This document shows positions 6,401 to 55,179 of a stretch of 64,000 nt of DNA, in pieces. Numbering within the stretch: the stretch's first letter is position 1; the number at the start of each line of letters is the position of its first letter. A program made the position numbers and the translations under genes. Where the stretch lies: assembly GCA_964016885.1 (NCBI GenBank), contig OZ024757.1:13268001-13332000 (forward strand), written 5' to 3'. The notes under the pieces are model-generated. The model was not told the DNA's origin and did not search any database. It was given only the letters and a program-made list of their open reading frames with translations. This stretch comes from Eledone cirrhosa (Eukaryota).

Positions 6401-9400
6401 GTACATTTGATGGTGTGGACTGTGTACTTTTTGTTGTGGCACCTACATGACCACTTTACAGTGTGGACTGGGTGCTTTTTGTCGTGAGACCCACATGATC
6501 ACTTTGCAGTGTGGGCTGGGTATATTTGTTGTGACACCTACATCACCACTTTACAGTGTGGACTGAGTGCCTTTGTCGTGACACCTATATGACCACTTTA
6601 CAGTGTGGACTGGGTGTTTTTGTTGTGATACCTATATGACCCCTTTACAATGTGGACTGGGTGCTTTTTGTCATGACAGCTACATGACCACTTTACAGTG
6701 TGGACTAGGTACTTTTTGTTGTGACACCTACATGACCACTTTACTGTGTGGACTGGGTGCTTTTTGACGCGACACCTACTGGACCACTTTACAGTGTGGA
6801 CTGTGTACTTTTTGTTGTGACACCTGAATGACCACTTTACAGTGTGGACTGGGTGCTTTTTGTTGTGAGACCTACATGACCACTTTACAGAAAGGACTGG
6901 GTACTTTTTGTTGTGACACTTACATGATCACTTTACAGTATGGACTGGGTGCTTTGTCATGGCACCTACATGAACACTTTACAGTGTGGACTGTGTACGT
7001 TTTGTTGTGACACCTAAATGACCACTTTACAGTTTGGACTGGGTGCTTTTTGTTTTGAGACCTATTTGACGACCTTACAGTGAGGACTTTGTGCTTTTTG
7101 TTGTGACACTTACATGACTATTTTACAGTTTGGACTGGGTGCTTTGTCAAGACACCTACATGACCATTTTACAGTGTGGCTGTGTACTTTTTGTTGTGAC
7201 ACCTAAATGACCACTTGACAGTGTGGACTGAGTGCTTTTGTCATGACACCTATATGATCACTTTACAGTGTGTATTGGGTACTTTTTGTTGTGACACCTA
7301 CATGACCACTTTACCATGTGGACTGGGTACTTTTTGTTGTGACACCTAAATGACCACTTTACAGCGTGGACTGGGTGTTTTTGTTGTGAGACATGCATGA
7401 CCACTTTACAGTGTGGACTGGGTACCTTTTGTTGTAACACTTACATGATCTCTTTACAGTATGGACAGGTTGCTTTGACATGACACCTACATGACCACTT
7501 TACAGTGTGGACTGGGTGCGTTGTTTTCGTCACACCTACATGACTACTTTACAGTGAGGACTGGGTGCTTTTTGCCGTGACACCTACATGACCCATATAT
7601 GACCAATTTACAGTGAGGGCTGTGTACTTTTTGTCATGACACCTACATGACCACTTTACAGTGTGGACTGGGTACTTTTTGTCATGACATCTACATGACC
7701 ACTTTTACAGTGTGGAATGGGTAATTGTTGTTGTGACACCTACATGACCGCTTTACAGTATGGACTGGGTACTTTTTGTTGTGACACCAACATGACCATT
7801 TTACAGTGTGGACTGGGTGATTTTTGTCATGACACCTATATTACCACTTTACAATGTGGACTGGGTACGTTTTGTCATGACACCTACATGACCAATACAG
7901 TGTGGACTAGGTACTTTTTGTTGTGACACCTACATGACCACTTTACAGTGTGGGCTGGGTTCTTTTTGTCATGACGCCTTCATGACTACTCTACAGTGTG
8001 GACTGAGTGATTATTGTAGTGACACTTACTTGACCACTTTACAGTATGGATTGTGTAATTTTTTTTGCGACACCTACATGAACACTTTACAGTGTGGACT
8101 GGGTACTTTTTGTTGTGACACCTACATGACCACTCTACAGTGAGGATTGGGAGCTTTTAGTCGTGACACTTACATGATGACCACTTTACAGTGTGGACTG
8201 GGTACTTATTGTTGTGGCACCTACATGACCACTTTACAGTGTGGGCAGGGTACTTTTTGTTATGACACCTACATGACCACTTTACAGTGTGGACTGGGTG
8301 CTTTTTGTCGTGACACCCACATGATGACTTTGCAGTGTGGGCTGGGTACATTTGTTGTGACACCTACATCAGAACCTTACAGTGTGGACTGGGTACTTTT
8401 TATTGTACCACCTACATGACTACTTTACAGTGTGGACTTAGTACTTTGTGTTGTGATCCTTACATGACCACTTTACAGTGTGGATTGGGTATTTATTGTT
8501 GTCACACCTACATGACAACTTTACAGTGTGGACTGAGTGCTTTTGTCATGACACCTATATGACTACTTTACAGTGTGGACTGGGTGTTTTTTGTCATGAC
8601 AGCTACATGATCACTTTACAGTGTGGACTGGGTACTTTTTGTTGGGACACCTACATGAACACTTTACTGGGTGGACTGGGTGCTTTTTGACATGACACCT
8701 ACATGACCACTTTACAGTGTGGACTGTGTACTCTTTGTTGTGACACCTAAATGACCACTTTACAGTGTGGACTGTGTACTCTTTGTTGTGACACCTAAAT
8801 GACCACTTTACAGTGTGGACTGGGTACTTATTGCTGTCACAGCTACATGACTACTTTACAGTGTGGACTGGGTGCTTTTTGTTTTGACACCTATTTGACC
8901 ACTTTACAGTGTGGACTGGGTGCTTTTTGTTGTGAGACCTACATGACCACTTTACAGTGAGGACTGGGTACTTTTTGTTGTGACACTTACATGATCACTT
9001 TACAGTATGAACTGGGTGCTTTGTCATGACGCCTACATGAACACCTTACAGTGTGGACTGGGTGCTTTTTGTTGTGACACCTACATGACCACTTTACAGT
9101 GTGGACTGAGAGCTTTTGTCATGACACCTATATGCCCACTTTACAGTGTGGGCTGGGTAATTTTTGTTGTGATACCTATATGACTACTTTACAGTGAGGA
9201 CTGGGTACTTTTTGCCGTGACACCTACATGACCACTTTAAAGTGTGGATTGGGTACTTGTTGTAATGGAACCTATATAACAACTTTACAGTGTGGATTTG
9301 CTGCTTTTTGTCGTGACACATATATAACCACTTTACAGTGACGGCTGTGTACTTTTTGTCATGACACCTACATGACCACTTTACAGTGTGGACTGGGTAC

Positions 9401-12400
9401 TTTTTGTTGTGACACCTACATGACCACTTTACAGTGTGGACTGGGTACCTTTTGTTGTGACACTTACATGATCTCTTTACAGTATGGACTGGGTGCTCTG
9501 ACCTGACACCTACATGACCACTTTACAGCGTGGACTGGGTGCTTTTTGTCGTGACACCCACATGACCACTTTGCAGTGTGGGCTGGGTACTTTTTGTTGT
9601 GACACCTACATCACCACTTTACAGTGTGGACTGGGTGTTTTTGTTGTGACACCTACATGACCACATTACTGTGTGGACTGGGTGCTTTTTGACGTGACAC
9701 CTACATGACCACTTTACAGTGTGGACTGTGTACTTTTTGTTGTGACACCTAAATGACCACTTTACAGTGTGGACTGAGTGCTTTTTGTTGTGAGACCTAC
9801 ATGACCACTTTACAATATGGACTGGGTGCTTTGTAATGACACCTACATGAACACTTTACAGTATGGACTGGGTACTTTTTGTTGTGACACCTACATGAGC
9901 ACTTTACAGTGTGGATTGGGTACTTTTTGTTGTGACACCTAAATGACCACTTTACAGTGTGGACTGGGTACTTTTTGTTGTGACACCTACATGACCAATT
10001 TACAGTGTGGACTGTGCACTTATTATTGTCACACCTACATGACCACTTTACACTGTGGACTGAGAGCTTTTGTCATGACACCTATATGCTCACTTTACAG
10101 TGTGGACTGGGTGCTTTTTGTCGTGACACCTACCTGACCAATCTACAGTGAGGGTTGGGAGCTTTTTGTCATGACACCTACATGATGACCACTTTACAGT
10201 GTGGACTGGGTACTTTTTGTTGTGGCACCTACATGACCACTTTACAGTGTGGATTGGGTACTTTTTGTTGTGACACCCACATGATCACTTTGCAGTGTGG
10301 GATGGGTACTTTTTGTTGTAACACCTACATCAGCACTTTACAGTGTGAACTGGGTACATTTTATTGTAACACCTACATGACCACTTTACAGTGTGGACTG
10401 GGTACGTTGTGTTGTGACACCTACATGATCACTTTACAGTGTGGAATGGGTACTTATTGTTGTCACACCTACATGACCACTTTACAGTGTGGACTGAGTG
10501 CTTTTGTCATGACAACTATATGACCACTTTACAGTGTGGACTGGGTGTTTTAGTTGTGATACATATATGACCCATTTGCAGTGTGGACTGGGTGCTTTTT
10601 GTCATGACAGCTACATGACCACTTTACAGTGTGAACTAGGTACATTTTGTTGTGACACCTACATGACCACTTTACAGTATGGACTGGGTGCTTTCTCATG
10701 ACACCTACATCACCACTTTACAGTGTGGACTAGGTACTTTTTGTTGTGACACTTACATGATCACTTTACAGTGTGGACTGGGTACTTTTTGTTGTGACAC
10801 CTACATGAGCACTTTAAAGTGTGGATGGGTACTTATTGTTGTCACAGCTACATGAGCACTTTACAGTGTGGACTGGGTACTTTTTATTGTGACACCTACA
10901 TGACCACTTTACAGTATGGAGTGGGTACTTTTTGTGACACCTACATGAGCACTTTACAGTGTGGATTGGGTACTTATTGTTGTCACAGCTACATGAGTAC
11001 TTTACAGTGAGGACTTTTTGCTTTTTGTTGTTACACTTACATGACTACTTTACAGTGTGGACTGTGTAATTTTTGTGGTTACACCTAATAGGATCACTTT
11101 ACAGTGTGGGCTGCGTGCTTTTTGTCGTGTCGCCTACATGAACAGTTTACAGTGTGGACTGGGTGCTTTTTGTTGGGACACCTACATGACCAATTTACAG
11201 TGTGGACTGAGTTCTTTTGTCATGACACCTATATGATCACTTTACAGTGTGTACTGGGTACTTTTTGTTGTGACACCTACATGACCACTTTACCATGTGG
11301 ACTGGGTACGTATTATTGTCACACCTACATGACCACTTTACAGTGTGGACTGAGAGCTTTTGTCATGACACCTATATGCCCACTTTACAGTGTCGACTGG
11401 GTGCTTTTTGTCGTGACACCTACCTGACCACTCTACAGTGAGGGTTGGGAGCTTTTTGTCATGACACCTACATGATGACCCCTTTACAGTGTGGACTGGG
11501 TACTTTTTGTTGTGGCACCTAAATGACCACTTTACAGTGTGGACTGGGTACTTTTTGTTGTGGCACCTAAATGACAACTTTACAGTGTGAACTGGGTACA
11601 TTTTATTGTAGCACCTACATGACCACTTTACAGTGTGGACTGGGTACTTTGTGTTGTGACACCTACATGATCACTTTACAGTGTGGAATGGGTACTTATT
11701 GTTGTCACACCTACATGACCACTTTACAGTGTGGACTGAGTGCTTTTGTCATGACACCTATATGACCACTTTACAGTGTGGACTGGGTGTTTTTGTTGTG
11801 ATACCTATATGACCACTTTACAGTGTAGACTGGGTGCTTTTTGTCATCACTGCTACATGACCACTTTACAGTGTGGACTGGGTACTTTTTGTTGTGAGAC
11901 CTACATGACCACTTTACAGTGAGGACTGTGTACTTTTTGTTGTGTCACCTACATGACCACTTTACTGTGTGGACTTGGTGCTTTTTGACGTGACACCTAA
12001 ATGACCACTTTACAGTGTGGACTGGGTGCTTTTTGTTGTGACACCTACATGACCACTTTACAGTGTGGACTGGGTACTTTTTATTGTGACATCTACATGA
12101 CCACTTTACAGTATGGACTGGGTACTTTTTGTTGTGACACCTACATGAGCACTTTACAGTGTGGATTGGGTACTTTTTGTTGTGACACCTAAATGACGAC
12201 TTTACATTGTGGACTGGTTGTTTTTGTTGTGAGACCTACATGACCACTTTACAGTGTGGACTGGGTACTTTTTGTTGTGACACCTACATGACCAATTTAC
12301 AGTGTGGACTGTGCACTTATTATTGTCACACCTACATGACCACTTTACAGTGTGGACTGAGAGCTTTTGTCATGACACCTATATGCTCACTTTACACTGT

Positions 12401-15400: not shown

Positions 15401-18400
15401 TTTACAGAGTGGACTGGGTGCTTTTTATTGTGACACCTACATAACCACTCTACAGTGAGGGTTGGGAGCTTTTTGTCGTGACACCTACATGATGACCACT
15501 TTACAGTGTGGACTGGGTACTTTTTGTTGTGGCACCTACATGACCACTTTACAGTGAGGACTGGGTACATTTTATTTTAACACCTACATAACCACTTTAC
15601 AGTGCGGACTGGGTACTTTTTGTTGTGACACCTACATGACCACTTTACAGTGTGGATTGGATACTTATTGTTGTCACACCTGCATCACCACTTTACAGTG
15701 TGGACTGAGTGCTTTTGTCATGACACCTATATGACCACTTTACAGTGTGGACTGGGTGCATTTTGTCGTGACACCTACATGACCACTCTACATTGAGGGT
15801 TGGGAGCTTTTTGTCGTGATACCTACATGATGACCACTTTACAGTGTGGACTGGGTACTTTTTGGTGTGGCACCTACACGACCACTTTACAGTGTGGACT
15901 GTGTACTTTTTGTTGTGACACCTACATGACCAGTTTACAGTGTGGATTGGGTACTTATTGTTGTCATAGCTACATGACCACTTTACAGTGTGGACTGGGT
16001 ACTTTTTGTTGCGGCACCTACATGACCACTTTACAATGAGAACTGGGTACATTTTATTTTAACACCTACATGACCACTTTACAGTGCGGACTGGATACTT
16101 TGTATTGTGACACCTACATGACCACTTTACAGTGTGGATTGGATACTTATTGTTGTCACACCTGCATGACCACTTTACAGTGTGGACTGAGTGTTTTTGT
16201 CATGACATCTATATGACCACTTTACAGTGTGGACTGGGTGTTTTTGTTGTGATACCTATATGACCCCTTTACAGTGTGGACTGGGTGCTTTTTATCATGA
16301 CAGCTAAATGACCACTTTACAGTGAGGACTGGGTACTTTTTGTTGTGACACTTACATGACCACTTTACAGTGTGGACTGGGTACTTTTTGTCATGACACC
16401 TACATGACCACTTTACAGTGTGGACTGGGTACTTTTTGTCATGACACCTACATGACCACTTTACAGTGTGGACTGGGTACTTTTTGTTGTGACACCTACA
16501 TGACCACTTTACAATGTGTACTGGGTACTTTTTGTCATGACACCTACATGACCACTTTACAGTGTGGACTGGGTACTTTTTGTCGTGACACCTACATGAC
16601 CACTTTACAGTGTGGATGGGTGCTTTTTGTTGTCACACCTACATGACCACTTTACAGTGTGGACTGTGTACTTTTTCTTGTGACACCAACATGACCACTT
16701 TACAGTATGGACTGGGTACTTTTTGTTGTGACACCTACATGACCACTTTACAGTGTGGATTGGGTACTTATTGTTGTCATAGCTACACGACCACATTACA
16801 GTGTGGATTGGGTATTTATTGTTGTCACACCTACATGAGTACTTTACAGTGTGGACTGAGTGCTTTTGTCATGACACCTACATGACCACTTTACAGTGTG
16901 GACTGGGTGCTTTTTGTTGTGACACCTACATGACCACTTTACAGTATGGACTGGGTACTTTTTATTGTGACATCTACATGACCACTTTACAGTGTGGACT
17001 GGGTACTATTTATTGTGACACCTACATGACCACTTTACAGTGTGGATTGGGTACTTTTTATTGTGACACCTACATGACCACTTTACAGTATGGACTGGGT
17101 ACTTTTTGTCGTGACACCTACATGACCACTCTACATCGTGGGTTGGGAGCTTTTTGTCGTGATACCTACATGATGACCACTTTACAGTGTGGACTGGGTA
17201 CTTTTTGGTGTGGCACCTACACGACCACTTTACAGTGTGGACTGTGTACTTTTTGTTGTGACACCTACATGATCAGTTTACAGTGTGGATTGGGTACTTA
17301 TTGTTGTCATAGCTACATGACCACTTTACAGTGTGGACTGGGTGCTTTTTGTTTTGACACCTACTTAACCACCTTACAGTGAGGACTTTTTGCTTTTTGT
17401 TGTTACTCTTACATGACTACTTTACAGTGTGGGCTCGGTGTTTTGTCATGAAACCTACATGACCATTTTACAGTGTGGACTGTGTACTTTTTGTTGTTAC
17501 ACCTAAATGACCACTTTACAGTGTGGGCTGCGTGCTTTTTGTCGTGACGCCTACGTGAGCAGTTTACAGTGTGAACTGGGTGCTTTTTGTTGGGACACCT
17601 ACATGACCACTTTACAGTGTGGACTGAGTGCTTTTGTCATGACACCTATATGATCAGTTTACAGTGTGTACTGGGTCTTTTTGTCATGACACGTACATGA
17701 CCACTCTACAGTGAGGGTTGGGAGCTTTTTGATGTGACACCTACATGACCACTTTACAGTGTGGACTGGGTGCTTTTTGTCGAGACACCCACATGATCAC
17801 TTTGCAGTGTGGGCTGGGTACTTCTTGTCGTGACACCTACATGATCACTTTACTGTGTGGATTGGGTACTTATTGTTGTCTCACCTACATGACCACTTTA
17901 CAGTGTGGACTGAGTGCATTTGTCATGACACCTACATGACCACTTTACAGTGTGGACTGGGTGTTTTTGTTGTGATACCTATATGACGACTTTACAGTGT
18001 GGACTGGGTGCTTTTTGTCATGACAGCTACATGACCACTTTACAGTGAGGACTGGGTACTTTTTGTTGTGACACTTACATGATCACTTTACAGTATGGAC
18101 CGGGTGTTTGTCATGACACCTACATGATCACTTTACAGTGTGGACTGGGTGCTTTTTGTTGTGACACCTACATGACCAGTTTACAATGTGGACTGGGTGC
18201 TTTTCGTTGTAACACCTACATGACCACTGTACAGTGTGGACTGTGTACTTTTTGTTGTGATACCTACATGAACACTTCACTGTGTGGACTAGGTGCTTTT
18301 TGACGTGACACCTAAATGCCCACTTTACAGTGTGGTCTGGGTCCTTTTTGTCATGACGCCTTCATGACTACTCTACAGTGTGGACTGAGAGCTTTTGTAA

Positions 18401-21400
18401 TGACACGTATATGACCACTTTACAGTGTGGACTGAGTGCTTTTGTCATGACACCTATATGACCACTTTACAGTGTGGACTGGGTGTTTTGTTGTAACACT
18501 TACATAATCACTTTACAGTATGGACTGGGTGCTTTGTCATGACACCTACATAATCACTTTACAGTGTGGACTGGGTGCTTTTTGTTGTGACACCTACATG
18601 ACCACTTTACAGTGTGGATTGGGTACTTTTGTCATAGCACTACATTGTCACTTTACAGTGTGGACTGGGTAATTTTTGTTGTGACACCTACATGACCACT
18701 TTATAATGTGTACTCGGTGCTTTTTGTCGTGACACCTACATGACCACTTTACAGTGTGGTCTGGGTGCTTTTTTTGTGATACCTACATGACCAGTTTACA
18801 GTGTGGACTGGGTGCTTTTTGTTGTGACACATATATGACCACTTTACCGTATGGACTGGGTGCTTTTGTCTTATCACCTGCATGACCATTTTATAGTGAG
18901 CACTGGGTGCTTTTTGTTGTCATACCTACATGACCACTTTACAGTGTGGACTGGGTGTTATTGTTGTGACACCTACATGATCACTTTCCAGTGTGGACTG
19001 GGTATTTATTGTTTTCACGCCTACATAACCACTTTACAGTGTGGACTGGGTACTTTTTCTTGTGACACCTACATGACCACTTTACAGTGTGGACTGGGTA
19101 TGTTTTGTTGTCACACCTGCATGACTACATTACAGTGTGGGCTGTGTACTTTTTGTTAATACGCCTTCATGACTACTTTACAGTGTGGCCTGAGTGATTT
19201 TGTTGTGACACCAACATGACCACTTTACAGTGTGGACTGGTTACTTTTTGTTGTGAAACCTACATGACCACTTTACAATGTGGATTGGGTACGTTTTCTC
19301 ATGACACCTACATGACCACTTTACAATGTGGACTGGGTACGTTTTGTCATGACACCTACCTGACCACCTTACAGTGTGGACTATGTTCTTTTTGTTGTGA
19401 CACCTACATGACCACTTTACAGTGTGGGCTGGGTACTTTTTGTCATGACACCTTCATGACTACTTTACAGTGTGGACTGGGAGCTTTTTGATGTGACACC
19501 TACATGACCACATGACCGTGAGGACTGGGTGTTTTTTGTTGTGACACCTACATGACTACTTTACAATGTGGACTGGGTACTTTCTGTTGAGACCTACATG
19601 ACCACTTTACAGTGTGGACTGGGTACTTTTTGTTGTGACACCTACATGACCACTTTACAGTGTGGAATGGGTACTTATTGTTGTCACACCTACATGACCA
19701 CTTTACAGTGTGGACTGGGAGCTTTTTGTTGGGACACCTACATGACCACATGACCGTGAGGACTGGGTGTTTTTGTCGTGACACCTACAGGACCACTTTA
19801 CAATGTGGACTGGGTACGTTTTGTCATGACACCTACATGACCACTTTACAATGTAGACTGGGTACGTTTTGTCATGACACCTACATGACCACTTTACCAT
19901 GTGGACTGGGTGCTTTTTGTCTTTTGACACGTACATCACCACTTTACAATGTGGACTGGGCACGTTTTGTCATGACACCTACATGACCACTTTACAGTGT
20001 GGACTGGGTACCTTTTGTTGTGAGACCTACATGTCCACTTTACAGAGTGGACTGGGTACTTTTTCTTGTGAAACCTACATGATCACTTTATTGTGAGAAC
20101 TGGGTGCTTTTTGTTGTCATACCTACATGACCACTTTACAGTGTGGACTGGGTGCTTCTTGTCGTGACACCTACATGGCCAATTTACAGTGTGGACTGGG
20201 TACATTTTTTTGTGACACCTACATGTCTACTTTACAGTGTGGACTGGGTACTTTTTGTTGTGATACCTACATGACCACTTTACTGCGTGGACTAGGTGCT
20301 TTTTGACGTGACACCTAAATGACCACTTTACAGTGTGGTCTGGGTCCTTTTTGTCATGACGCCTTCATGACTACTCTACAGTGTGGACTGAGAGCTTTTG
20401 TAATGACACCTATATGACCACTTTACAGTGTGGACTGGGTGCTTTTTGTTGTGACACCCACATGACCACTTTGCAGTGTGGACTGGATAATTTGTGTTGT
20501 GACACCTACATGACCACTTTACAGTGTGGATTGAGTCATTATTGTTGTCACACCTACATGACCACTTTACAGTGTGGACTGAGTGCTTTTGTCATGACAC
20601 CTATATGACCACTTTACAGTGTGGACTGGGTGTTTTTGTTGTTGCGCTTACATGATCACTTTACAGTATGGACTGGGTGCTTTGTCATGACACCTACATA
20701 ATCACTTTACAGTGTGGACTGGGTGCTTTTTGTTGTGACACCTACATGACCACCTTACAGTGTGGACTGGGTACTTTTGTTGTAACGCCTACATGAGCAG
20801 TTTACAGTGTGTACTGGGTACTTTTTATTGTGACACCTACATGACTACTTTACTTTGTGGACTGGGTACTTTTTGTTGTGACACCTACATGACCACTTTA
20901 CAGTGTGAACTGGGTGTTTTTGTTGTGAGACCTACATGATCTCTTTACAGTATGGACTGGGTGCTTTGACATGACACCTACATGACCACTTTACAGTGTG
21001 GACTGGGTGATTTTTGTCATAGCACCTACATGACTACTTTACAGTGTGGACTGGGTGCTTTGTGTCATCACACCTACATGACTACTTTGCAGTGAGGACT
21101 GGGTGCTTTTTCCCGTGACACTTACATGACCACTTTACAGTGTGGACTGTGTACTTGTTGTAATGACACCTATATTACCACTTTACAGTGTGGATTTGCT
21201 GCTTTTTGTCGTGACACATATATGACCACTTTACAGTGAGGGCTGTGTACTTTTTGTCATGACACCTACATGACCACTTTACAGTGTGGACTGGGTACTT
21301 TTCGTTATGACACCTACATGACCACTTTTACAGTGTGGACTGGGTAATTGTTGTTGTGACACCTACATGACTGCTTTACAGTGTGGACTGGGTGATTTTT

Positions 21401-24400
21401 GTGATGACACCTATATGACCACTTTACAATGTGGACTGGGTACGTTTTGTCATGATACCTCCATGACCAATACAGTGTGGACTAGGTACTTTTTGTTGTG
21501 ACACCTACATGACCACTTTACAGTGTGGGCTGGGTCTTTTTGTCATGACGCCTTCATGACTACTCTACAGTGTGGACTGAGGGATTTTTGTAGTGACACT
21601 TACATGACCACTTTACAGTATGTATTGTGTACTTTTTTTTGTGACACCTACATGAACACTTTACAGTGTGGACTGGGTACTTTTTGTTGTGACACCTACA
21701 TGACCACTTTACAGTGTGGACTGGCTACTTTTTGTTGTGACACCTACATGTCCACTTTACAGTGTGGGCTGTGCACTTATTATTGTCACACCTACATGAC
21801 CACTCTACAGTGTGGACTGAGAGCTTTTGTCATGACACCTATATGACCACTTTACAGTGTGGACTGGGTGCTTTTTGTTGTGACACCTACATGACCACTC
21901 TACAGTGAGGATTGGGAGCTTTTTGTCGTGACACCTACATGATGACCACTTTACAGTGTGGACTGGGTACTTTTTGTTGTGACACCTGCATGACCACTTT
22001 ACAGTGTGGGCTGTGTACTTTTTATCATGACAACTACATGACCACTTTACAGTGTGGACTGGGTAATTTTTGTCATGACTCCTACATGAACACTTTACAG
22101 CGTGGACTGGGTACTTTTTGTTGTGACACCTACTTGACCATTTACAGTGTGGATTGAGTTCTTTTGTCATGGCACCTATATTATCACTTTACAGTGTGTA
22201 TTGGGTACTTTTGTTGTGACACTACATTGTCACTTTACAGTGTGGACTGGGTACTTTTTGTCGTGACACCTACATGACCACTTTGCAGTGTGGGCTGGTT
22301 ACTTTTTTTTGTGACACCTACATTACCAGTTTACAGTGTGGACTGGGTGCTTTTTGTTGTGACACATACATGACCACTTTACAGTGTGGACTGGGTGCTT
22401 TTGTCTTATCACCTGCATGACCATTTTATAGTGAGGACTGGGTGCTTTTTGTTGTCATACCTACATGACCACTTTACAGTGTGGACTGGGTGTTATTGTT
22501 GTGACACCTACATGATCACTTTACAGCGTGGACTGGGTATTTATTGTTTTCACGCCTACATAACCACATTAGAGTGCGGACTGGGTACTTTTTGTTGTGA
22601 CACCTACATGATCACTTTACAGTGTGGACTGGGTACTTATTGTTGTCTCACCAACATGACCACTTTACAGTGTGACTGGGTACGTTTTGTTGTCACACCT
22701 GCATGACTACATCACAGTGTGGGCTGGGTACTTTTTGTTATGACGCCTTCATGACTACTTTACAGTGTGGCCTGAGTGATTTTGTTGTGACACCAACATG
22801 ACCACTTTACAGTGTGGACTGGGTACTTTTTGTTGTGACACCTACATGACCACTTTACAATGTGGATTGGGTACGTTTTGTCATGACACCTACATGACCA
22901 CTTTACAATGTGGACTGGGTGCTTTTTGTCTTTTGACACGTACATCATCACCTTACAATGTGGACTGGGTACGTTTTGTCATGACACCTACATGACCACT
23001 TTACAATGTGGATTGGGTACGTTTTCTCATGACACCTACATGACCACCTTACAATGTGGACTGGGTACGTTTTGTCATGACACCTACATGACCACTTTAC
23101 AGTGTGGACTATGTTCTTTTTGTTGTGACACCTACATGACCACTTTACAGTGTGGGCTGGGTACTTTTTGTCATGACACCTTCATGACTACTTTACAGTG
23201 TGGACTGGGAGCTTTTTGTTGTGACACCTACATGACCACATGACCGTGAGGACTGGGTGTTTTTTGTTGTGACACCTACATGACTACTTTACAATGTGGA
23301 CTGGGTACTTTCTGTTGAGACCTACATGACCACTTTACAGTGTGGACTGGGTACTTTTTGTTGTGACACCTACATGATCACTTTACAGTGTGGACTGGGT
23401 ACTTATTGTTGTCACACCTACATGACCACATGACCGTGAGGACTGGGTGTTTTTTGTTGTGACACCTACATGACCACTTTACAATGTGGACTGGGTACGT
23501 TTTGTCATGACACCTACATGACCACTTTACAATGTAGACTGGGTACGTTTTGTCATGACACCTACATGACCACTTTACCATGTGGACTGGGTGCTTTTTG
23601 TCTTTTGACACGTACATCACCACTTTACAATGTGGACTGGGCCCGCTTTGTCATGACACCTACATGACCACTTTACAGTGGACTGGGTACCTTTTGTTGT
23701 GAGACCTACATGACCACTTTACAGTGTGGACTGGGTACTTTTTCTTGTGAGACCTACATGATCACTTTATAGTGAGAACTGGGTGCTTTTTGTTGTCATA
23801 CCTACATGACCACTTTACAGTGTGGACTCGGTACTTTTCTTTGTGCCACCGATATGACCACTTTTCAGTGTGGACTGGGTTCTTTTTGTCGTGACACCTA
23901 CATGACCACTTTACAGTGAAGACTGGGTGCTTTTTTCATGACACCTACATGACCACTTTACAGTGAGGACTGGAGGAATTTTGTCATGACACCTACATGA
24001 CCACTCTACAGTGAGCACTGGGTGCTTTTCTGTTGTGACACCTACATAACCACTTTACAGTGTGGAATGGGTGCTTTTTGTTATGATACCTACATGGCCA
24101 CTTTATAGAGTGTACTGGGTTCTTTTTTGTTGTGACACCTACATGACCACTTTACAGTGTGGACTGGGTACTTTTGTTGTGACACCTACATGATCACTTT
24201 ACAGTGTGGACTTGGTAATTTTTGTTGTGATACCTACATGACCACTTTACAGTGAGGACTGGGTACTTTTTTTGTCCCACCTACATGACCACTTTACAGT
24301 GAAGACTGGGTGCTTTTTTCATTACACCTACATGACCACTCTACAATGAGCACTGGGTGCTTTTCTGTTGTGACACCTACATGGCCACTTGACAGTGAGG

Positions 24401-24650
24401 ACTGGGTGCTTTTTGTCATGATACCTACATGACCACTCTACAGTGAGGACTGGGTGCTTTTTGTCACGACACCTACATGACCACTTTACAGTGTGGACGG
24501 GGTACTTTTCTTTGTTCCACTTTCATGACCACTCTACAGTGAGGACTGGGTGCTTTTTGTCATCACACCTACATGACCACTCTACAGTGAGGACTGGCTG
24601 CTTTTTGTCATGACACCTACATGACCACTTTACAGAGTGTACTGTGTGAT
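6401..24650. repeat. 48-bp tandem satellite, consensus GACACCTACATGACCACTTTACAGTGTGGACTGGGTACTTTTTGTTGT, about 380 copies
   Basis: Continuous tandem array with substitutions and 1-3 bp indels. The 16-aa periodicity (DTYMTTLQCGLGTFCC) in the ORF track confirms the 48-bp period. Confidence 0.98.
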
Positions 24651-25064
24651 ATACTTTTCTTTACACATGTTATACACAAATTCATGCTCTTCAGAAAAGT
24701 GACAGGACTATGAATATTGTGCAAGAAAGGTTTCAATGCCTCCAATCTTGCACCTAGTGAAGAGGCCAGTGTTAGGTGTTTTGTCTTTCAGTGTGTACCC
24801 ACAGATTTTGTGAAGACAACCTTTATGAAAGATATCCAGTTGGTTGACATGTGAGCTTTATGGAGTTCAGGATTCTGTTCCATATAAGGATGTGGTCAGT
24901 ACAACAACTTTATAAACCTGTATATTGGTGTCCAGTTTTATGCCCCTCTTATTCCAAAGGCGATGATGGAGCTTGCCAAATGCACTTATGGCTTAACTTA
25001 TATGATTAATTATCTCATGTGTGTGCCTGTGTGTATATATGTATATATATATATATAATGTTTG

Positions 25065-25352
25065 TACCACAAAACATCCAGCCCACACTGTAAAGTGGTC
25101 GTATAGGTGTCACAACAAAATGCACCCAGCCCATACTATAAAGTGGTCATGTAGGAGACATTTCAAAGAGCACCCAGCACTCACTGTAAATGAGGTTGGC
25201 GTTAGGAAGGGCATCCAGTCATAGAAAACCAACCAGAAGCATTCCTATATGAGCGAGACATGGTTACCCAACCCAACTTGCCTCTAATGGGACAAACCTG
25301 TCCAACCCATGCTAGCATGGAAGACAGATGTTAAACGATGATGATGATGGTG
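25065..25352 (+). mobile_element. RTE-LINE/SINE 3' tail carrying about 2.5 satellite monomers (reverse orientation to the array) and ending in (GAT)n
   Basis: CCCACACTGTAAAGTGGTC..AGGTGTCACAACAAAA units are followed by GGTTGGCGTTAGGAAGGGCATCC...AACCCATGCTAGCATGGAAGACAGATGTTAAACGATGATGATG. The same tail is at 32021-32249 and 59942-60150. Confidence 0.85.
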
Positions 25353-25475: not shown

Positions 25476-25478
<3 letters not shown>

Positions 25479-25815
25479 AGGGACCGGGTGAAAATAGACG
25501 AGATGCAATTTGGGTTTGTACCAGGAAGACGCACCACTGATGCCCTCTTCCTTGTGAGGCAGTTACAGGAAAAGTACCTAGCTAAAAGTAAGCCACTCTA
25601 CTTGGCATTTGTCGACCTTGAGAAAGCCTTTGACAGAGTTCCACGTGCTGTAATCTGGTGGGCTCTTAGAAAACTAGGAGTAGATGAATGGCTTGTGAAA
25701 GCGGTACAAGCCATGTATAGGGGAGCAGTCAGCAAAGTTAAGATTAGCAATGAGTATAGCGAGGAATGCTAGCGTGGAAGACCGGCGTAAAATGGTGATG
25801 ATGATGTGATGATGA
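25476..25815 (+). pseudogene. RTE-clade non-LTR retrotransposon reverse transcriptase fragment joined directly to its (GAT)n 3' tail
   Basis: ORF 25488-25772 QFGFVPGRRTTDALF..RQLQEKY..LYLAFVDLEKAFDRVPR (non-LTR RT motifs), then GCTAGCGTGGAAGACCGGCGTAAAATGGTGATGATG. Confidence 0.9.
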
Positions 25816-25980: not shown

Positions 25981-26395
25981 TGTTGTTGTTGTTGGTGTTG
26001 TTGTTGCTGCTGCTGTTGTTGTTGGTGTTGTTGTTGGTGGTGGTGTTGTTGGTGGTGTTGTTGTTGGTGGTGTTGTTGGTGTTGTTGTTGGTGTTGGTGT
26101 TGCTGTTGTTGTTGGTGTTGTAGGTGTTGTTGGTGTTGGTGGTGTTGTTGGTGTTGTTAGTGTTGTTGTTGGTGGTGTTGTTGGTGTTGTTGTTGGTGGT
26201 GGTGGTGTTGTTGGTGTTGTTGGTGTTGTTGTTGGTGTTGTTGGTGATGTTGTTGGTGTTGTTGGTGTTGTTGTTGTTGGTGGTGGTGATGTTGTTGTTG
26301 GTGGTGTTGTTGGTGTTGTTGGTGGTGGTGATGTTGTTGTTGGTGGTGTTGTTGGTGTTGTTGGTGTTGTTAGTGTTGTTGGTGTTGTCGGTGTC
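25981..26395. repeat. (GTT/GGT)n trinucleotide low-complexity tract
   Basis: Seen directly; produces the poly-V/G, poly-L and poly-N/T ORFs. Confidence 0.95.
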
Positions 26396-29692: not shown

Positions 29693-29742
29693 AGAGTATT
29701 GAAGTTTGCTTGAAGCATTGTGGAACAATAAGTAAATATCTT

Positions 29743-30091
29743 TAAGTCGTTTGGAAGCCTCGACAATGCAAATGGGTAAATCTCCGGGTAACAAGGTCCG
29801 GTGGTGGAGAGAGATGTAAGTGGGTGTACGTTGAGATGCGTGGTGTGTATAAGATGTGTGAGATGTGTAGAATGAAGGGAAGAGTATAAAGGATAAAATT
29901 AAAATAACAACACAAGAGAGAGTTACCTTGGGAGAGATTTAATAGTCCCTATATATTTCGGATTCACATCATCAACTAGGTTTTTTTACACACCACGCAT
30001 CTCAACGTACACCCACTTACATCTCTCTCTCCACCACCGGACCTTGTTACCCGGAGATTTACCCATTTGCATTGTCGAGGCTTCCAAACGA

Positions 30092-30095
<4 letters not shown>
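29743..30095. repeat. Fold-back inverted repeat (arms of about 107 bp, 29743-29849 / 29987-30095) next to (TA)n
   Basis: TAAGTCGTTTGGAAGCCTCGAC... is the reverse complement of ...GTCGAGGCTTCCAAACGACTTA. Confidence 0.92.
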
Positions 30096-30174
<79 letters not shown>

Positions 30175-31642: not shown

Positions 31643-32249
<607 letters not shown>

Positions 32250-32329
32250 ATAAAACCCTTATCGAGTCCTCTTTGGATTTGAGTTTTTGTATTTATTGTT
32301 ACTCTCTCTATATATATATATAGAGAGAG

Positions 32330-32478: not shown

Positions 32479-32985
32479 TTCGTTTTTTAATTTGTTTTGA
32501 AAGATTTCTCGTCTGAAAGCGTGTGTTGAAACATATTGTTATACTTAGGGAGGGTCATGCTACCAATAAAAACGCACGCACCTGTTGGTTTTAACTTCAA
32601 TTTATTATAAATTTCCAATTGGTTGGTTCAATAACTGTATTGTTGTTCATATATTGTCAAAGCTCTTTCATCACACATTCTGTGACCTCCTCAGTTATTG
32701 ACTTCTTATTTTGTGCCTCTCCTTTGTTCTGACCTACACCATCTTGTTTTTGTGTGTTGTGTGCTGTGTACATGGTTTGTGCATGCGTTACATCCGGGTG
32801 TGTGCGTGTTTTGATTTATTTATTTATGTGTTTATTTACTTGTCACTAGTTGGTTGTTTGTTCTATCTCTGTGTGTCTGTATATCTTCATTTTGTGTTCG
32901 TTTATATTTGTTGCCTCTGTGATTTGTCTGAACATTGCATCTTTTCTGTGTGTGGATATAATTTTTATCTTTATGTTCTCTAATG
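32478..32985 (-). mobile_element. 3' end of a Penelope-like element: GIY-YIG C-terminal relic plus hammerhead-bearing 3' UTR
   Basis: Minus ORF IKIISTHRKDAMFRQITEATNINE matches the 59331 ORF. Hammerhead CTGAGGA-ggtcacag/tgtgat-GAAA-gagcTT at 32656-32702. UTR homologues at 49390-49630 and 51850-52155. Confidence 0.75.
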
Positions 32986-33204
32986 TGCACCTATGTTTCA
33001 TTTTGTCAGGATCTAGCTGGAATTTGTCTCCGTTGCCTCTGCTTTCAAACTTACATTTAAACACTTTCTTGAATTGGAGAATAACATTGGTAGTCATGGT
33101 AGCAGTGAGACGTCAACGTACTGTCTCCAACACTACAAACTACAAGTGACTCAGAGTTACTTCCCTTAGCGTGTGTTAAAATAAAAACACGATGCCTTTC
33201 ATGT

Positions 33205-33606
33205 GGTATGGAGGGCGTTTCAGATCCAACTGGAACTCCTTTCTGCTACCTCTGAAAGTTGTTCTCTAGCTCCAACCTCTATGGTTAGAACTTTGACAAC
33301 TTTGACTTGGAAGTCGGCTTCCCTCAGGTTGTTGGTCAAACTGGCGTATTTTTCAGTCACAAATAAATATGCTTATTTTAATCTACTTTCAAATGGTTCG
33401 GTAAGTTCAACCAAAATCAGCTGTTTTAATGAACTGGAATCGGCTATGATATCTGGCCTCAAACCAGACTTTCTAATGATTTCTGGTTTTGCTGACCCTA
33501 GGAGGTCTGCTGTACACTTCCAGTCATCCACATCCCCCAGAAGATCCAATACCTGTGCCCTGTATGGCATAGCTGTTCCTGGCCAGGATTTGCTGCCTCC
33601 TGCCAT
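33205..33606 (-). pseudogene. Restriction-like endonuclease (RLE) domain relic of a HERO/NeSL-like non-LTR retrotransposon
   Basis: DWKCTADL..LRPDII..KQLILVELTEPFE. After a stop the frame continues EKYASL..IEVGAR..AERSSSWIW, giving the PD-(D/E)xK RLE signature. Confidence 0.75.
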
Positions 33607-33708: not shown

Positions 33709-34016
33709 CACAATGTTTAAACAGGTAATTAAAATCCTAGTCTTCAGAACATTGATAAAGATACGTAACTATTGTCAGTGTCAGTGACATCATATTGAAA
33801 AGCAGGAGTTACAAAAAGATGTTAGGTTACAACAGTATGTGGAGCAATGGTGAAAAGTGAAATATTGAGCATATTATATATAAAGATATTATTTAAGCTA
33901 ATACATGTGCAAAAGAAGCAAAAGATGGTGTTAGAGAAGATAAAAGATATCATGGCATTGAAAAGCAGGTAATGTTAAGGGTATATAATGCAAAAGTTAA
34001 TAATACATATCGAACA

Positions 34017-35330
34017 TGGCCATTTCCTTGACGGAATCAGAGTTTTGTCCTCTTTTCTACTTATCAGCACTTTTGTCTTAGCTAGGTTCACTCTCAGTCC
34101 TCTTGATTCCAACTGCTGTTTCCATAATTTATCCTCTAGCTCCTCTACTTACTGATTCTACTATAAGAACCAGATCGTCAGCATAGAGAAGTTCCCATGG
34201 GCAGTCAGTCTTAAACTCCTTTGTTATGGCTTGGAGGACTATAAGAGCGGGATGAGGACCGAACCCTGATGTACTCCTACTTGTATCTGGAATTCCTCAC
34301 TAAACTCCATTCCTACCCTGACTTTACTGAGAGTACCTCTGTACATAGCTTGCACTGTCCTCACAAGCCATTCCTCTACACCTAGTTTCCTTAGGGACCA
34401 CCAGATGACAGATCGGGGTACCCTATTAAAGGCCTTCTCTAGGTCAACAAAAGCTAAGTATAGTAGCTTATTATTCTCTAAGAACCTCTCTTGTAGTTGC
34501 CTCACTATGAAGAGGGCATCTGTTGTACTTTTCCCAGGCACAAAACCAAACTGCATCTCATCTAGTTTGACCCTTTCTCTAATTAGTTGTGTTAGTATTC
34601 TTTCTGCCACTTTCATTAGTTTTATGCCCCTATAATTGCTCGTCTCCAGAGCATCCCTTTTACCTTTGTAGCAATAAGTCTTTGAGTATGACACCACCAT
34701 ATATAACTTGATTGATGATGCATGCAACCAGTTATTTTACCTACTCCTCCTTCAGCATCTCAGCAACTATCTCCGACGTTCCAGCTGCCTTACCTTTTTT
34801 AATTTCCTTAATTGACTCTTGGACCCTATATTCGTCAATCTCAATAGCTAGTCCCTCTGTCGGGTTTACCGGGGGTAGTTTCTCTCCCATTCATTCTCCA
34901 CATTCATCAGTCTCTCATAATGACATTTGCAGGCCTCCTTTTTCTGATCATTAGTGACACTAAGTACACCATCATCATTTCGGACACATTTATCTCCAAC
35001 AACATCCTGATTTTCACTGACACACTGCCTTGCAATGCGGAACACCGCACATCTCTGATCTTCCCATCGCAGAATATTGGCAACAATATTCTCAGCCTCC
35101 GTGCGTGCTAAGTACACCTGACGCTTAGCTTCTCTCTTAGCGGCTGTGTATCGGTCTCTACTCCCACCCTATTTCCAAGCATTCCATGCTAGTCTTTTGT
35201 GCCTTATCTACCGTGTTGTTCCACCACCAGGTCACTCTCTGTCTGGTCGGAGCTCTGCTCCAGCCACAAGTTTCTTCAGTAGCCTGCAGTAAGTTGTCAC
35301 GTAAGAAATTCTAGTTATCATCTATTGTTT
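34017..35330 (-). pseudogene. Degenerate RTE LINE ORF (linker region and RT)
   Basis: YKGKRDALETSNYRGIKLM, QFGFVPGKSTTDA, AFVDLEKAFNRVPR, VGVHQGSVL, then CPWELLYADDL downstream. Upstream TWWWNN and YLARTEAE segments. Frameshifts and deletions present. Confidence 0.9.
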
Positions 35331-35342
35331 ATTTTGTAATTT

Positions 35343-37478: not shown

Positions 37479-40135
37479 TTAACCTGTTGACTGCCGCGTA
37501 TATTTTACAGTTACATTAACGTCATCAGCTTTTGTTCCTTTGGAGATAACTGGCAACATTTGACAGAAATCTCCTGCAAAAAGAACTGATACTCCTCCCA
37601 TGAGCATGCTATTGTTTTTTATGTCTTGGAGGGTATGGTCAAGTACATCTAGAGCTCCACTATGTGACATAGTGCACTCATTCCAAACAATGAAGCAAGT
37701 TCTTTGGAGAGCTGTTGCCAATGCTGAGCCTTTGGAAATGTTGCATATTGAGATTCTTTCATTACAAGGTAGAGGGAATTTGAACATGGAATCAGCAGTT
37801 CTTCCCCCATTGAGGAAGGTTGCTGCAATACCAGAGGATGCAACAGCTAAGGAAATTTGATTCTGCTGATGGACTGTAGCAAGAAGTAAATTCATTAGGA
37901 ATGTCTTTCCTGTACCATTCAATGGTGTACATATGACAAATAGTTGGTCCAAAAATGGCAATGTTTGTGTTGGGGATCAAACAAACCATTTTCTGACGAA
38001 ACACTTGCAATAATATTATGTCGATGATGGGGTTCTTGACCAGGAAGAAGGTTAGATTTTATTTCCTCCCATTTTGGATTGCAGGTAAAATTGATAGAAA
38101 GATCTGGTTTTCCATACGTCATAGCATCTTGTGTTTGTTCGAGCATATATCGAGGACCACCTGTGAATGATGATGGGAGGATTATGAGTTGCCCCGTGTT
38201 TTGAATATCACCATCTGTCCTCAGAGCATCTTGGAGATGAACATAATTTTCAGTCCTTAACTTTTTTTATTGTTACGAATGTAGAGGAGACGCTCCCTCT
38301 CAACTTTAACATACATATCAGCCAGGTATTGATGAAATAGATCACGATACATGTGTAATTGATTTAAGTGTTCTGGTCCTAACATCAGTAAGAATAGAAG
38401 TCACTTGATGACACCTTTTTGTTTGTAATTGGCTCACCTGTTGCAGGTTCAATCTGTGGAATATTGAAATGATAGCCATCTTGTCAATTCCACAAAATAA
38501 GAGGATACTGGAGAGCATCATAAGAGGGACGAGTCTCTGAAACACATTTAAAGTTGTTATCTCAAGCATGAATGAGAATATCACAATTTACATGGGGATC
38601 ACCTACCATAAGGATGGCTACTTCATTAGATGTGGGGTCATTGACGTACATGTTCACCATGATGTCGTTTGTCAACGCGGATAACAACTTGATAATCCCT
38701 TGAGGTTGTTGTTCAATAACTGTTTTAAAGGCTTGAACCAGAGCATTGTTTTCATGCAACATATTTTGCAATTGCTGAACAATGCTTATATCCAAATTTC
38801 TGAAGTTTTGACACCTCCTTCATGTTTGTTGTTCTACGTCACTCATAAAGTAAATTTGGAGGAACTTTTTTTGTTCATTTGTGGGCAACAGGGAACCAAT
38901 GAGGTGATAGATTTTCCCTTGAACTTTGAATGTTGGCATAAATCCATGTTTAACTATCTCCTTAGATGCACCAAATGATGTCATTTGAAATGCAGAGTTG
39001 TATTGTTTAATATTGTTCAGAAAATGCTTTGACTGGATGGAAGTGCCTTCCAGAATATCTATAAGATGTTGAGGAGGAGCTGATAGTTCTGGCAATCTTA
39101 CTTTACTGCCTGAGCAGCACATGCCCTTTGTTTCACTTGGAAATTTTAAAGCTTTGCAGAAATGACAATTTGAGTTTAGAACACCAACTTGAACAGAATT
39201 ATCATTTTTATAAGAATGGGATGGATCATATCTTAAAGCAGCTCCAGGAGTTGTGAACAACGAATTTGTTGATGGTCTGTTTCTGAGAGCTTTTCTATTG
39301 GACCTATGTCTAATCTGGTGTGTTAAATGTTGTTTTCATGATTCAGTATTAAGTGCTGTAGTGTGCCTTTATTTATCTTGGGAAAGCCTCATCTTCCTTC
39401 TCTCTTGAAACTTCATCTGACATGCTGCAGCATGCTTTTGCACATATGTATATGTATGTTTAGATGTGTGCGTGTGTGTGTGTGTGTGTTTAATAACATA
39501 CCTAATGAACGCGCAAACACACACACTTACAGACACATACATATTCATATAAAAAATGTGACGTTGAAGTCGTTGTGTTGTTTACTTAGTTGTCTATAGT
39601 AGTTTTAGATAAAGTGTTATATTGTTTTAATCAAAATGAAAATAAAAATTATCACATGCATTCTCACATACACTCTCACATGCACTTACACACACATACA
39701 CTCTCACATAGACTCACATACATATACTAAGACATGTTTACCCCCTCAGGGTAAACATTATAAACTTGTCAGTCAGCACATATACATATGTATGTGTAGA
39801 TGTGTGTGTTAAATTCTCTGTGTATGAAGATAATGGATATGCAACTTACTAAGGCCTAACGTACGTAACGAACGCGCAAACACACACACGCTCACAGACA
39901 CATACACACTCATATACAAAATATGACGTCATCATCATGGCGCTGGTATAAAATGTTGTTTACTTATAGAAAGATTATTTTAGATAAAATGTTATTATTT
40001 TAATCCAAATGAAAATAAAAATTACATATTGTTAATCCTGGGGTCTCATTGTAAAATTTGATTCGATTTAGTCGAACCGTTTGAGAATGCATAAGGAAAC
40101 AGACATACAGACAGAGAGACAAAGAATTTGATATA
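37479..40135 (-). mobile_element. Helitron RepHel pseudogene (Zn-finger/Rep plus PIF1-family helicase) with 5' subterminal region
   Basis: CHFCKALKF..MCCSG, YNSAFQMTSFGA, FKVQGKIYHLIGSLLP, GKPDL..FTCNPKW, YTIEW; helicase GTGKTF, VASSGIAA, GGRTA, GDFCQMLPV. Many frameshifts. 39770-40130 is homologous to 36790-37330. Confidence 0.92.
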
Positions 40136-55162: not shown

Positions 55163-55179
55163 TATATATATATATATAT

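Follow-up and report, generated by a model that had tools for sequence, protein, structure and literature searches.

In squamate reptiles, satellites derived from SINEs (sSat1-3) have been described whose unit, ~70-290 nt in length, is part of a tRNA-derived SINE; their loci comprise from a few to hundreds of units, with 320, ~950 and >1200 units also reported, short loci are variable, and some loci without an extended terminal unit are described as minor variants (PMC10702118). Such satellites characteristically occupy numerous loci in a genome and are biased towards subtelomeres. The same account terms earlier examples of SINE satellites inconclusive (PMC10702118). The 48-bp satellite from Eledone cirrhosa that we describe here, found in a stretch of 64,000 nucleotides (the window), resembles these systems in that its unit is homologous to part of a SINE and shorter than this SINE (37/48 positions, E 5.5e-9), and in that it contains at least four middle monomers (380 here, and 5.4 at a second locus). 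It departs from them in the length of the unit, 48 bp, and in its position: the unit maps to a part derived from an RTE 5' UTR that is common to the SINE and to headless elements. Furthermore, neither array end exhibits, within the window, a terminal unit extending to the SINE terminus as is usual for sSat loci, the long array is less uniform than the short one (84% against 94-100%), contrary to the sSat trend, and the host is not a reptile.

Bov-tA, AfroSINE, WALLSI2, CoeSINE4 and the Ceph-SINEs have been described as bipartite RTE-derived SINEs and non-autonomous RTEs (PMC5786205). As far as the descriptions in that paper extend, the window elements have in common with such SINEs a tRNA head, possibly the optional CORE-type middle, an RTE 5'-UTR fragment, a short RTE 3' end and a microsatellite tail; AviRTE is reported there with its 5'-UTR domain present twice (PMC5786205). 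In contrast to the elements presented in that work, those of the window exhibit another 5'-UTR block, which carries tandem 48-bp units matching a large satellite; the sequence words of this block were not found in the supplementary passages compared (PMC5786205). By eye, the Ceph-SINE consensus passages looked unlike the window SINE.

In Lathyrus sativus, 9 of 11 satellites stem from short tandem arrays inside LTR retrotransposons that occasionally expand (PMC7004042). That system concerns LTR elements in a plant, whereas the present one concerns non-LTR RTE/SINE elements in an animal and at one locus. The source elements in Lathyrus are reportedly of the Ogre type. Minisatellites derived from Alu and B1 and L1-derived satellites of cetaceans and Phodopus are also known (PMC6947457). 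These cases are alike in that retroposon sequence seeds tandem repeats via short flanking repeats, and differ in that other retroposon clades are concerned. Tandem units can also ride within mobile elements, as do the 5' monomers of rodent L1 and the VNTR of SVA, and L1 monomers are known to have promoter activity. In the open-access literature, we found no work on the present family or on a retroposon-derived cephalopod satellite. The 48-bp array most likely arose from SINE/RTE-type retroposons, and adds another case from animals to a process already on record for reptiles and plants.

The 48-bp array and its dispersed homologues

The array occupies positions 6413..24650 on the minus strand, the strand being given in the sense of the retroposons, and consists of ~380 head-to-tail monomers (TRF on 6413-24644: period 48, 381.2 copies, 82% matches). 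The 380 monomers excised for comparison show a mean identity of 90.6% to the array majority (range 79-100%), a pairwise identity of 84% and a nearest-neighbour identity of 97%, with 95% of them possessing a neighbour that is >91.7% identical. No regular higher-order repeat was detected, mean identity being flat by lag (0.84-0.85 at lags 1-199), and no inverted monomers were found in the array. Duplicated blocks of 92-99% identity are present at many different lags: the array was enlarged via irregular duplication of blocks of 5-13 monomers. The longest exact repeat within the array measures 150-199 bp; an assembly artefact was ruled out, with monomers 16% apart and no exact repeat as long as 200 bp. 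At columns 25-26, the 380 monomers carry CA in 216 cases, TG in 91 and CG in 42, which is the pattern of a decaying CpG; the SINE and the copy at 60 kb retain CG at these columns. No function of the array is indicated, and it most likely represents neutral or structural heterochromatic DNA.

When a profile of the array monomers was used to search the masked window, all six dispersed loci that the first-pass annotation had named as homologous to the monomer were recovered: three matches at 25068-25190 (E 8e-14 to 5e-7), single matches at 32041-32081 (E 5.5e-9), 59601-59647 (E 3.5e-12) and 60102-60142 (E 6e-11), five matches at 57569-57795 (E 1e-10 to 5e-5) and the weakest at 56371-56446 (E 0.001 and 0.008). 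A further partial match, at 55969-55983, had been absent from that annotation. The real loci score 12-47 bits (the SINE unit 31.8 bits), against a best score of 10.2 bits when the non-array part was dinucleotide-shuffled 20 times. The unit counts that had been given are about right (~0.9, 1.5, ~2, 2.5 and ~5.3), and the string quoted for SINE bases 32024-32080 is their exact reverse complement. The description of this segment as one full satellite monomer goes too far: it is identical to the array majority at 37/48 positions (77%), below every one of the 380 monomers (79-100%), and is thus a homologue of the array monomer, not an array-type monomer. By sequence comparison, monomer and retroposon segment share a common origin.

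Position of the unit within the retroposons

A conserved block follows immediately 3' of the unit, with the end of the unit overlapping the start of the block. In the tRNA-headed SINE (31878..32250, plus strand), a head (31888-31945) is followed by a short middle part, one unit (32028-32075) together with a few bases of a preceding unit, the block (32085-32107), a body, the RTE 3' end and (GAT)n. The head reaches 24.2 bits against the Rfam tRNA model (E 0.0098), a value below the gathering score, which is to be expected of a SINE head, and ARAGORN detected no tRNA gene there; a short word near 31966 may be CORE-like. The same succession of block, body, RTE 3' end and (GAT)n is found in two bipartite elements: at 25067..25350 (plus strand) it is preceded by 2.5 units (25067-25184; block 25194-25216), of which the inner is 87.5% and the last 77% identical to the array majority, and at 59942..60150 (minus strand) by ~0.9 unit (block 60076-60098). 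A different tail subfamily is represented at 55966..56232 (plus strand), apparently 5'-truncated in the last third of the unit, and a third at 56240..56463 (minus strand), where two shortened variant units (56377-56463) run straight into the block. The unit end stands ahead of the block in all three tail subfamilies of the window and would therefore be an integral, older part of the element. An RT fragment (25476..25810, plus strand), corresponding to residues 603-699 of a full-length relative, runs directly into the terminal ~45 nt of the 3' end that the elements share (25767-25810). Two loci have neither block nor tail: a free mini-array of 5.3-5.4 units of 48 bp (57562..57819, minus strand) and 1.5 units flanked by a Penelope-like 3' relic and by (GA)n (59590..59662, plus strand). 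The four full units of the mini-array are 94-100% identical to each other and 73-79% identical to the big array, and this locus is best read as a separate, younger unit variant.

The unit had been placed in the 3' tail of the SINE/RTE elements; the block that adjoins it maps to RTE 5' UTRs instead. A profile of the window tails matches contig L002 at 3976-4039 (E 3.3e-10) and 188-221 (E 0.003), each time 20-40 nt short of where an endonuclease-RT ORF has its first ATG, and the 45 nt at the end of the tail match L002 at 3435-3482 (E 4e-5), at the ORF end (stop 3460-3462). As judged from these alignments, the block is 5'-UTR sequence in two related RTE LINEs of L002, a placement taken from one foreign contig and two elements, the ORFs of which share 46-54% identity with a relative of the window RT. 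Compared with the stretch of L002 UTR that precedes the block, the unit itself shows marginal similarity (p 0.04-0.05 in two of five comparisons, 0.4-0.5 in the other three). A second scan for the block returned seven loci from 85 candidates, with L002, L003 and L004 containing it; in L003 two SINE copies have it behind a tRNA head, and its exact pattern gave 0 matches in prokaryotic genome contigs. Only the last ~45 nt of the window elements can be assigned to the RTE 3' end. The elements are bipartite derivatives of RTE, and one of them is tRNA-headed: the tRNA head, the RTE 5'-UTR middle and the RTE 3' end with microsatellite tail of bipartite RTE-derived SINEs are all present.

No known RNA, self-cleaving ribozymes included, reached the Rfam gathering score anywhere in the window, no ribozyme was among 14 weak matches round the SINE, and the folding z-scores of six stretches (-1.2 to +1.5) were no better than those of shuffles. 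An RNA structure at the unit-block junctions was not supported: there was no Rfam match, and in a consensus fold of five junctions only 1/12 pairs shows a double change. A hairpin spanning the junction, seen in single folds of two copies, is likewise unsupported. A sigma-70 scan, which addresses a bacterial promoter type in what is a eukaryotic host, revealed nothing above chance.

This anatomy bears directly on the reading of 1, 1.5, 2.5, 5 and 380 units as successive growth stages of an unstable minisatellite residing in a 3' tail or 3' UTR. The copies at 25067, 60150 and 55966 start mid-unit beside (TA)n and end in (GAT)n; they apparently are 5'-truncated insertions, with target-site duplications unreadable within (TA)n, and the units at 57.6 kb and 56.4 kb are other variants. 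The segment at 56360-56460 had been taken for an RTE 3' UTR. The element there is preceded by ~90-150 nt and then an RT relic (56613-57225), whose homology ends at residue 733/1057 (position 56613), ~325 residues before the ORF end, and the segment is therefore no UTR following an ORF. That unit counts run from <1 to 380, and that an RTE ORF relic is followed by units in sense at two loci (56.4 kb and the array), would fit growth within a 3' tail, and the lineage could have shifted the block to a 3' UTR of greater length; however, the two ORF relics end early, by ~325 and ~135 residues, and come from different RTE subfamilies, L002 has the block in its 5' UTRs, three low-count copies have the appearance of truncation and the 5-unit array is of a younger, other variant, which leaves this model very unlikely. 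Of the statement that a retroposon-tail minisatellite seeds macrosatellites, the common origin is retained and the direction is the more likely one, whilst the source would lie in the 5'-UTR-derived part rather than in the 3' tail and ordered stages are not seen.

Direction of transfer between retroposon and satellite

Between the majority of the six dispersed loci and that of the array, 4/48 columns differ, with one further column tied; all four differences are G>A or C>T in the array, and two of them are CpG>CpA. Under the array's own substitution spectrum, a derived array is favoured ~88-fold, or ~21-fold with the three columns that are stable in 6/6 leave-one-out majorities, both values being rough and the variants non-independent. 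This polarity shows that the array is derived from a shared ancestor and is silent as to that ancestor being a retroposon. Because of the mutation polarity together with the unit running into the conserved RTE block, the direction from retroposon to satellite appears more likely, and is favoured, not proven; the donor may be a headless bipartite element rather than a SINE.

A maximum-likelihood tree of 38/380 monomers and 11 dispersed units over 48 columns places the array majority near the centre of a star, and in the best tree the dispersed units are scattered among array monomers, with the array not separate (5 changes). The array forms one clade in 0/200 bootstrap trees; 31/46 inner branches of the tree are open, 48 columns being too few, and an AU test on this 48-column tree rejected neither arrangement (p 0.31 and 0.28), such that array monophyly is not rejected. 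The dispersed loci are more diverse than the array (71% between loci vs 84% among monomers), and for each of four tail-bearing loci the similarity to the remaining dispersed loci equals or exceeds that to the array. The pieces without a tail, at 59.6 kb and 57.6 kb, resemble the array majority (0.81 and 0.77) more than they resemble the remaining dispersed loci (0.76 and 0.72), and could therefore be offshoots of the array.

An older satellite, from which a retroposon took up monomers via template switching or read-through and then spread them, would account for the central array majority, for the dispersed units falling among array monomers, for the array-like inner unit at 25089-25136 (87.5%, the 33rd percentile of the array's own range) and for the leaning of the two tail-less loci. 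It would require that three tail subfamilies took up the unit at one and the same position, or that the uptake preceded their split, as well as A/T>G/C changes creating CpGs in the retroposon; moreover, no dispersed unit has an array neighbour >90%, against 95% of monomers with one >91.7%, and we regard such reverse capture as unlikely. Traffic in both directions has to be weighed as well, with variants exchanged between retroposons and arrays elsewhere, the present array stemming from another array, and the short tail-less pieces being offshoots generated by gene conversion, break repair or circular DNA. Traffic of this kind is reviewed in PMC6947457, and array polymorphisms at columns 25-26 and 35 that are common to different dispersed loci, the two tail-less loci and the missing retroposon flank of the array all point towards it; by itself, it leaves the overlap of the unit with the conserved RTE block unexplained, and we hold it to be quite unlikely as an alternative, although it is compatible with an ultimate retroposon origin and partly refines the explanation that we prefer.

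Array ends and a proposed course of growth

Within the window, neither end of the array runs on into a block, tail or SINE head: the right end abuts an RTE ORF relic and the left end a 38-bp satellite that extends out of the window. At the right, the array starts mid-unit (24586..24650, minus strand), with two alleles in its outermost partial unit that characterise the 57.6-kb mini-array and occur together in only 1/380 monomers. The column-45 allele common to the three tail-adjacent units is present in 11/20 of the first monomers vs 37/360 of the others (Fisher p 3e-6). The relic (24717..25016, minus strand) preserves, in decayed form, C-terminal sequence of an RTE ORF from another subfamily (best phmmer match E 7.6e-28 at 56% identity; profile iE 2e-5); it has the orientation of the array, stops ~65 nt before it and lacks the last ~135 residues, as judged from the full-length relatives P0274 and P0311. 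Relatives of this relic terminate in a C2H2-like finger.

The second satellite (1..6392, plus strand) continues past the window edge. Its 38-bp unit consists of a 22-bp unit with an internal 16-bp duplication, and it is more uniform than the 48-bp array (94.5% to the majority; 92% near the junction and 97% at the window edge). At the junction of the two lie two 23-bp chimeric units (6377..6422, plus strand) that match half of the 48-bp monomer, with 20-21 identities over 24 columns (shuffle p 0.002-0.004, in a comparison picked after the junction was seen). Only these junction units match: the 38-bp and 22-bp majority units show no significant homology to the 48-bp unit (p 0.78 and 0.53). A doubtful extension would have a mobile, VNTR-carrying bipartite RTE family, with its 5'-UTR unit in tandem within the element as in rodent L1 monomers or the VNTR of SVA, repeatedly seeding arrays; a single insertion of this family would have lengthened to 18 kb where it stood, and half-monomer slippage at the far end (24 -> 23 -> 22 -> 38 bp) would have given rise to a daughter satellite, with block, tail and the rest of the ORF lying beyond the 38-bp array. 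If true, this would amount to a genealogy from retroposon to VNTR to satellite to second satellite inside 25 kb.

Taken as a whole, we consider it fairly probable that the array grew from the 5'-UTR-derived unit of a bipartite RTE/SINE family. The homology, the element anatomy, the place of the block in the 5' UTRs of two related LINEs and the block-wise growth of the array are established; the 48-bp unit would be a module of the 5'-UTR-derived part of a non-autonomous RTE family in which part of an RTE 5' UTR was fused to an RTE 3' end, and on which the tRNA-headed SINE was also built. Slippage or unequal exchange may have turned the unit tandem inside the element, giving master elements with a short run of units, and retrotransposition, mostly into (TA)n and often with 5' truncation, would have spread elements holding whichever stretch of the run had been copied. 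In one that had landed within an older RTE relic, where the right end of the array may have originated by TPRT, the run would then have expanded by repeated irregular block duplication to ~380 copies; the expanding array would have lost CpGs and partly fixed new T/A alleles, whilst at 57.6 kb a variant unit would have reached five copies in an expansion of its own.

That satellites can arise from SINEs and LINEs is documented, and clean animal cases beyond reptiles and mammals are few. Nothing is overturned by the present locus, the expected outcome being one more family in a known class. If the model of growth in place holds, it would offer a compact test bed for the passage from a short retroposon-borne VNTR to a long array, and possibly for one satellite budding another.

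The 48-bp array and its surroundings

The 48-bp array is a real and fairly clean satellite related to retroposons, and its source appears to be the 5'-UTR-derived part of a bipartite RTE/SINE; the proposed ladder of intermediates finds no support. It extends from 6413 to 24644 (period 48, 381 copies) and was cut into 380 monomers for comparison: these are 90.6% identical to their own majority (range 79–100%), and identity reaches 97% to the nearest neighbour. Among the 380 monomers there is no regular higher-order repeat and none is inverted; duplicated blocks of 5–13 monomers (92–99% identity) recur at many differing spacings, with the longest exact repeat below 200 bp. The array is old and the product of irregular block duplication. 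An assembly artefact was considered and rejected, and neither Rfam nor folding revealed RNA families or unusual folds.

At low coordinates the array meets a 38-bp satellite (1–6422 including the junction) via two 23-bp units that match half of the 48-bp monomer. This satellite is more uniform than the array, its uniformity climbing from 92% to 97% away from the junction: it may be a daughter budded from the array or an unrelated satellite joined by chance at microhomology, and the similarity of the 22-bp and 38-bp majority units to the 48-bp unit is not significant (p 0.53 and 0.78). Read in element sense, the array opens mid-unit near 24650, 65 nt past a degraded C-terminal stretch of an RTE ORF from a different, C2H2-finger subfamily (24717–25016, minus strand; best E 7.6e-28, 56%). 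That stretch, absent from the first-pass annotation, is co-oriented with the array and broken off just before it; compared to two full-length relatives it lacks ~135 residues. One allele that tail-adjacent units also carry occurs in 11 of the first 20 monomers versus 37 of 360 elsewhere, which may reflect an old edge or local homogenisation.

Elsewhere in the window, an uninterrupted frame of 677 codons (45499–47532, plus strand; 42–57% identity to many relatives), which we take from its motifs to be a Penelope-like RT/GIY-YIG frame, found zero matches in Pfam and may represent a recent element; broken pieces related to it lie at 62242–63621. Penelope-like 3' relics occupy 58700–59560 (plus strand; GIY-YIG, PF01541, at 59114–59359) and 32845–33600 (minus strand), and a PIF1 helicase fragment (PF05970, E 1.7e-40) marks a Helitron-like relic at 37480–39335 (minus strand). 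Many short dispersed repeats populate 28000–64000, several as inverted pairs or palindromes (49870–50178 with 51303–51610, 95%; 54855–55164; 29733–30105), and are probably MITE or DNA-transposon derivatives. A young 37-bp minisatellite (41749–41984; 6.4 copies, 94%) and a long GTT/GGT run (25981–26394) complete the set.

Dispersed units and the elements that carry them

The first-pass annotation had traced the array's unit to six further loci, forming a ladder of increasing copy number. A monomer profile recovered all six, confirming the shared unit, together with a seventh, partial match at 55969–55983: real loci score 12–47 bits, against a maximum of 10.2 bits in 20 shuffles of non-array DNA. 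The dispersed loci are 71% alike, versus 84% pairwise for array monomers. The SINE string named as a complete satellite monomer is correct as a string, but with 77% identity to the array majority it falls below every array monomer and is not a full monomer of the array type. The ladder itself did not hold. Copies at 25067, 60150 and 55966 start mid-unit directly after (TA)n and finish in (GAT)n, as expected of 5'-truncated insertions, and hence their unit counts are lower bounds; other upstream sequence is present only at the SINE (~1.2 units) and the 56.4-kb locus (~2). The 57.6-kb array holds 5 units, of which the four full ones are 94–100% uniform and 73–79% like the big array: the 48-bp unit has therefore been amplified twice. 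The 56.4-kb units are a separate variant, each of these two loci forms its own well-supported clade, and they are parallel events. The 1.5-unit piece at 59.6 kb adjoins the end of one Penelope-like 3' relic, while the other relic copy continues without it.

In the SINE (31878–32250) a tRNA-derived head (Rfam tRNA, E 0.0098) is followed by a single unit, a conserved block of 23 nt, a body of ~100 nt, a 45-nt terminus and (GAT)n. The block has three exact copies in the window (25194, 32085 and 60076; 0 expected) and diverged forms at 56.0 and 56.35 kb. In three distinct tail subfamilies it is preceded by the end of the unit, and downstream of it the three close tails share 68–79% identity. The terminal 45 nt also lies directly 3' of an RT fragment (25476–25766). 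The window's RT relics are members of an endonuclease-RT-PHD family, presumably of the RTE clade to judge from the known ORF type and the (GAT)n-like tail; a longer relic (33906–35340, minus strand) covers residues ~348–813 with frameshifts and lacks a tail. Within 55966–56463, two different tail elements abut by their 3' ends at about 56236.

An alignment of 14 RT sequences, used to scan contigs of prokaryotic genomes, yielded 7 loci from 85 candidates; these are evidently retroelement contigs of eukaryotic origin that were binned among bacteria. One of them, L002, carries two RTE elements, head to tail, and a profile of the window tails matches it three times: at 188–221 and 3976–4039 (best E 3.3e-10), 20–40 nt upstream of each ORF's first ATG, and at 3435–3482 (E 4e-5), across the stop codon of the first element's ORF, so that the 3' UTR of that element is very short. 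The block therefore maps to the 5'-UTR, against the earlier placement of the unit in a 3' tail, and the window "tail" would be a 5'-UTR piece plus an RTE 3' end, with the monomer lying 5' of the 5'-UTR block. The strongest L002 match reaches ~20 nt into the unit's end; the unit alone gives marginal results against the L002 UTR (of five comparisons, two had p 0.04 and 0.05 and three 0.4–0.5). Two tRNA-headed SINE copies in contig L003 (minus strand, ~2330–2520 and ~4300–4490) carry the block immediately after the head, and show apparent target-site duplications; L004 has one block, and convincing matches to the tail profile are absent from L001 and L005–L007. Judged from one foreign contig, the unit appears to belong to the 5'-UTR-derived part. 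The 56360–56460 locus, previously read as an RTE 3' UTR, follows an RT relic ending at residue 733 of 1057 so that the locus is either a separate insertion or the result of an internal deletion. The window elements share the bipartite RTE design described in PMC5786205, a 5'-UTR piece joined to an RTE 3' end; this RTE/SINE family was not found in the accessible parts of the octopus element literature (PMC9115989, PMC4758252, PMC4824008, PMC5804259).

Direction of descent and growth of the array

The monomer phylogeny proposed earlier as a check on nesting has little resolution. It sampled one array monomer in ten (38 of 380) and 11 of the 14 dispersed units, omitting two partial units and one duplicate; none of 200 bootstrap trees recovers the array as a single clade, but the AU test does not reject that grouping (p 0.31). 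Polarity is more telling. The dispersed majority (six loci, one vote each) agrees with that of the array at 43 of 48 columns, with one tied and four differing; each of the four is a G>A or C>T change on the array side, and two are CpG>CpA. In the array's substitution spectrum G>A is 4.2 times A>G and C>T 2.2 times T>C, giving a likelihood ratio for a derived array of ~88 (rough, from the array's own spectrum), or ~21 on the three columns stable in six of six leave-one-out majorities (rough, arithmetic from the same rates). Columns 25–26 read CA in 216 array monomers, TG in 91 and CG in 42, whereas both the SINE and the 60-kb copy have CG there; the array's other TG or CA columns show CG 0–17 times. 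The lower identity among dispersed loci (71%, against 84% in the array) and the presence of the unit's end ahead of the block in three tail subfamilies point the same way. Counter to descent from a retroposon, the inner unit 25089–25136 falls inside the array's identity range, the tail-less loci at 57.6 and 59.6 kb are nearer to the array than to the other dispersed loci, and retroposon flank is absent beside the array. On balance, we infer that the satellite quite probably arose from the retroposon.

The homology, the element anatomy and the block-wise growth are direct observations. Most likely, the unit would have turned tandem in the RTE 5'-UTR-derived part within the bipartite non-autonomous element, retrotransposition with truncation would have dispersed copies, one lineage would have gained a tRNA head by fusion, and a single insertion would have grown, presumably in place, into the 18-kb array via unequal exchange or slippage.

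Comparable origins are known: in 56 squamate genomes, PMC10702118 describes satellites built from portions of three SINE families, whose loci hold a few to >1200 units and usually have a terminal unit that extends to a SINE end; PMC7004042 reports that 9 of 11 Lathyrus satellites expanded from short arrays inside LTR elements, and PMC6947457 lists Alu-, B1- and L1-derived cases. No description of the 48-bp satellite was found in the open-access literature. The array would add one case to the known retroposon-derived satellites.
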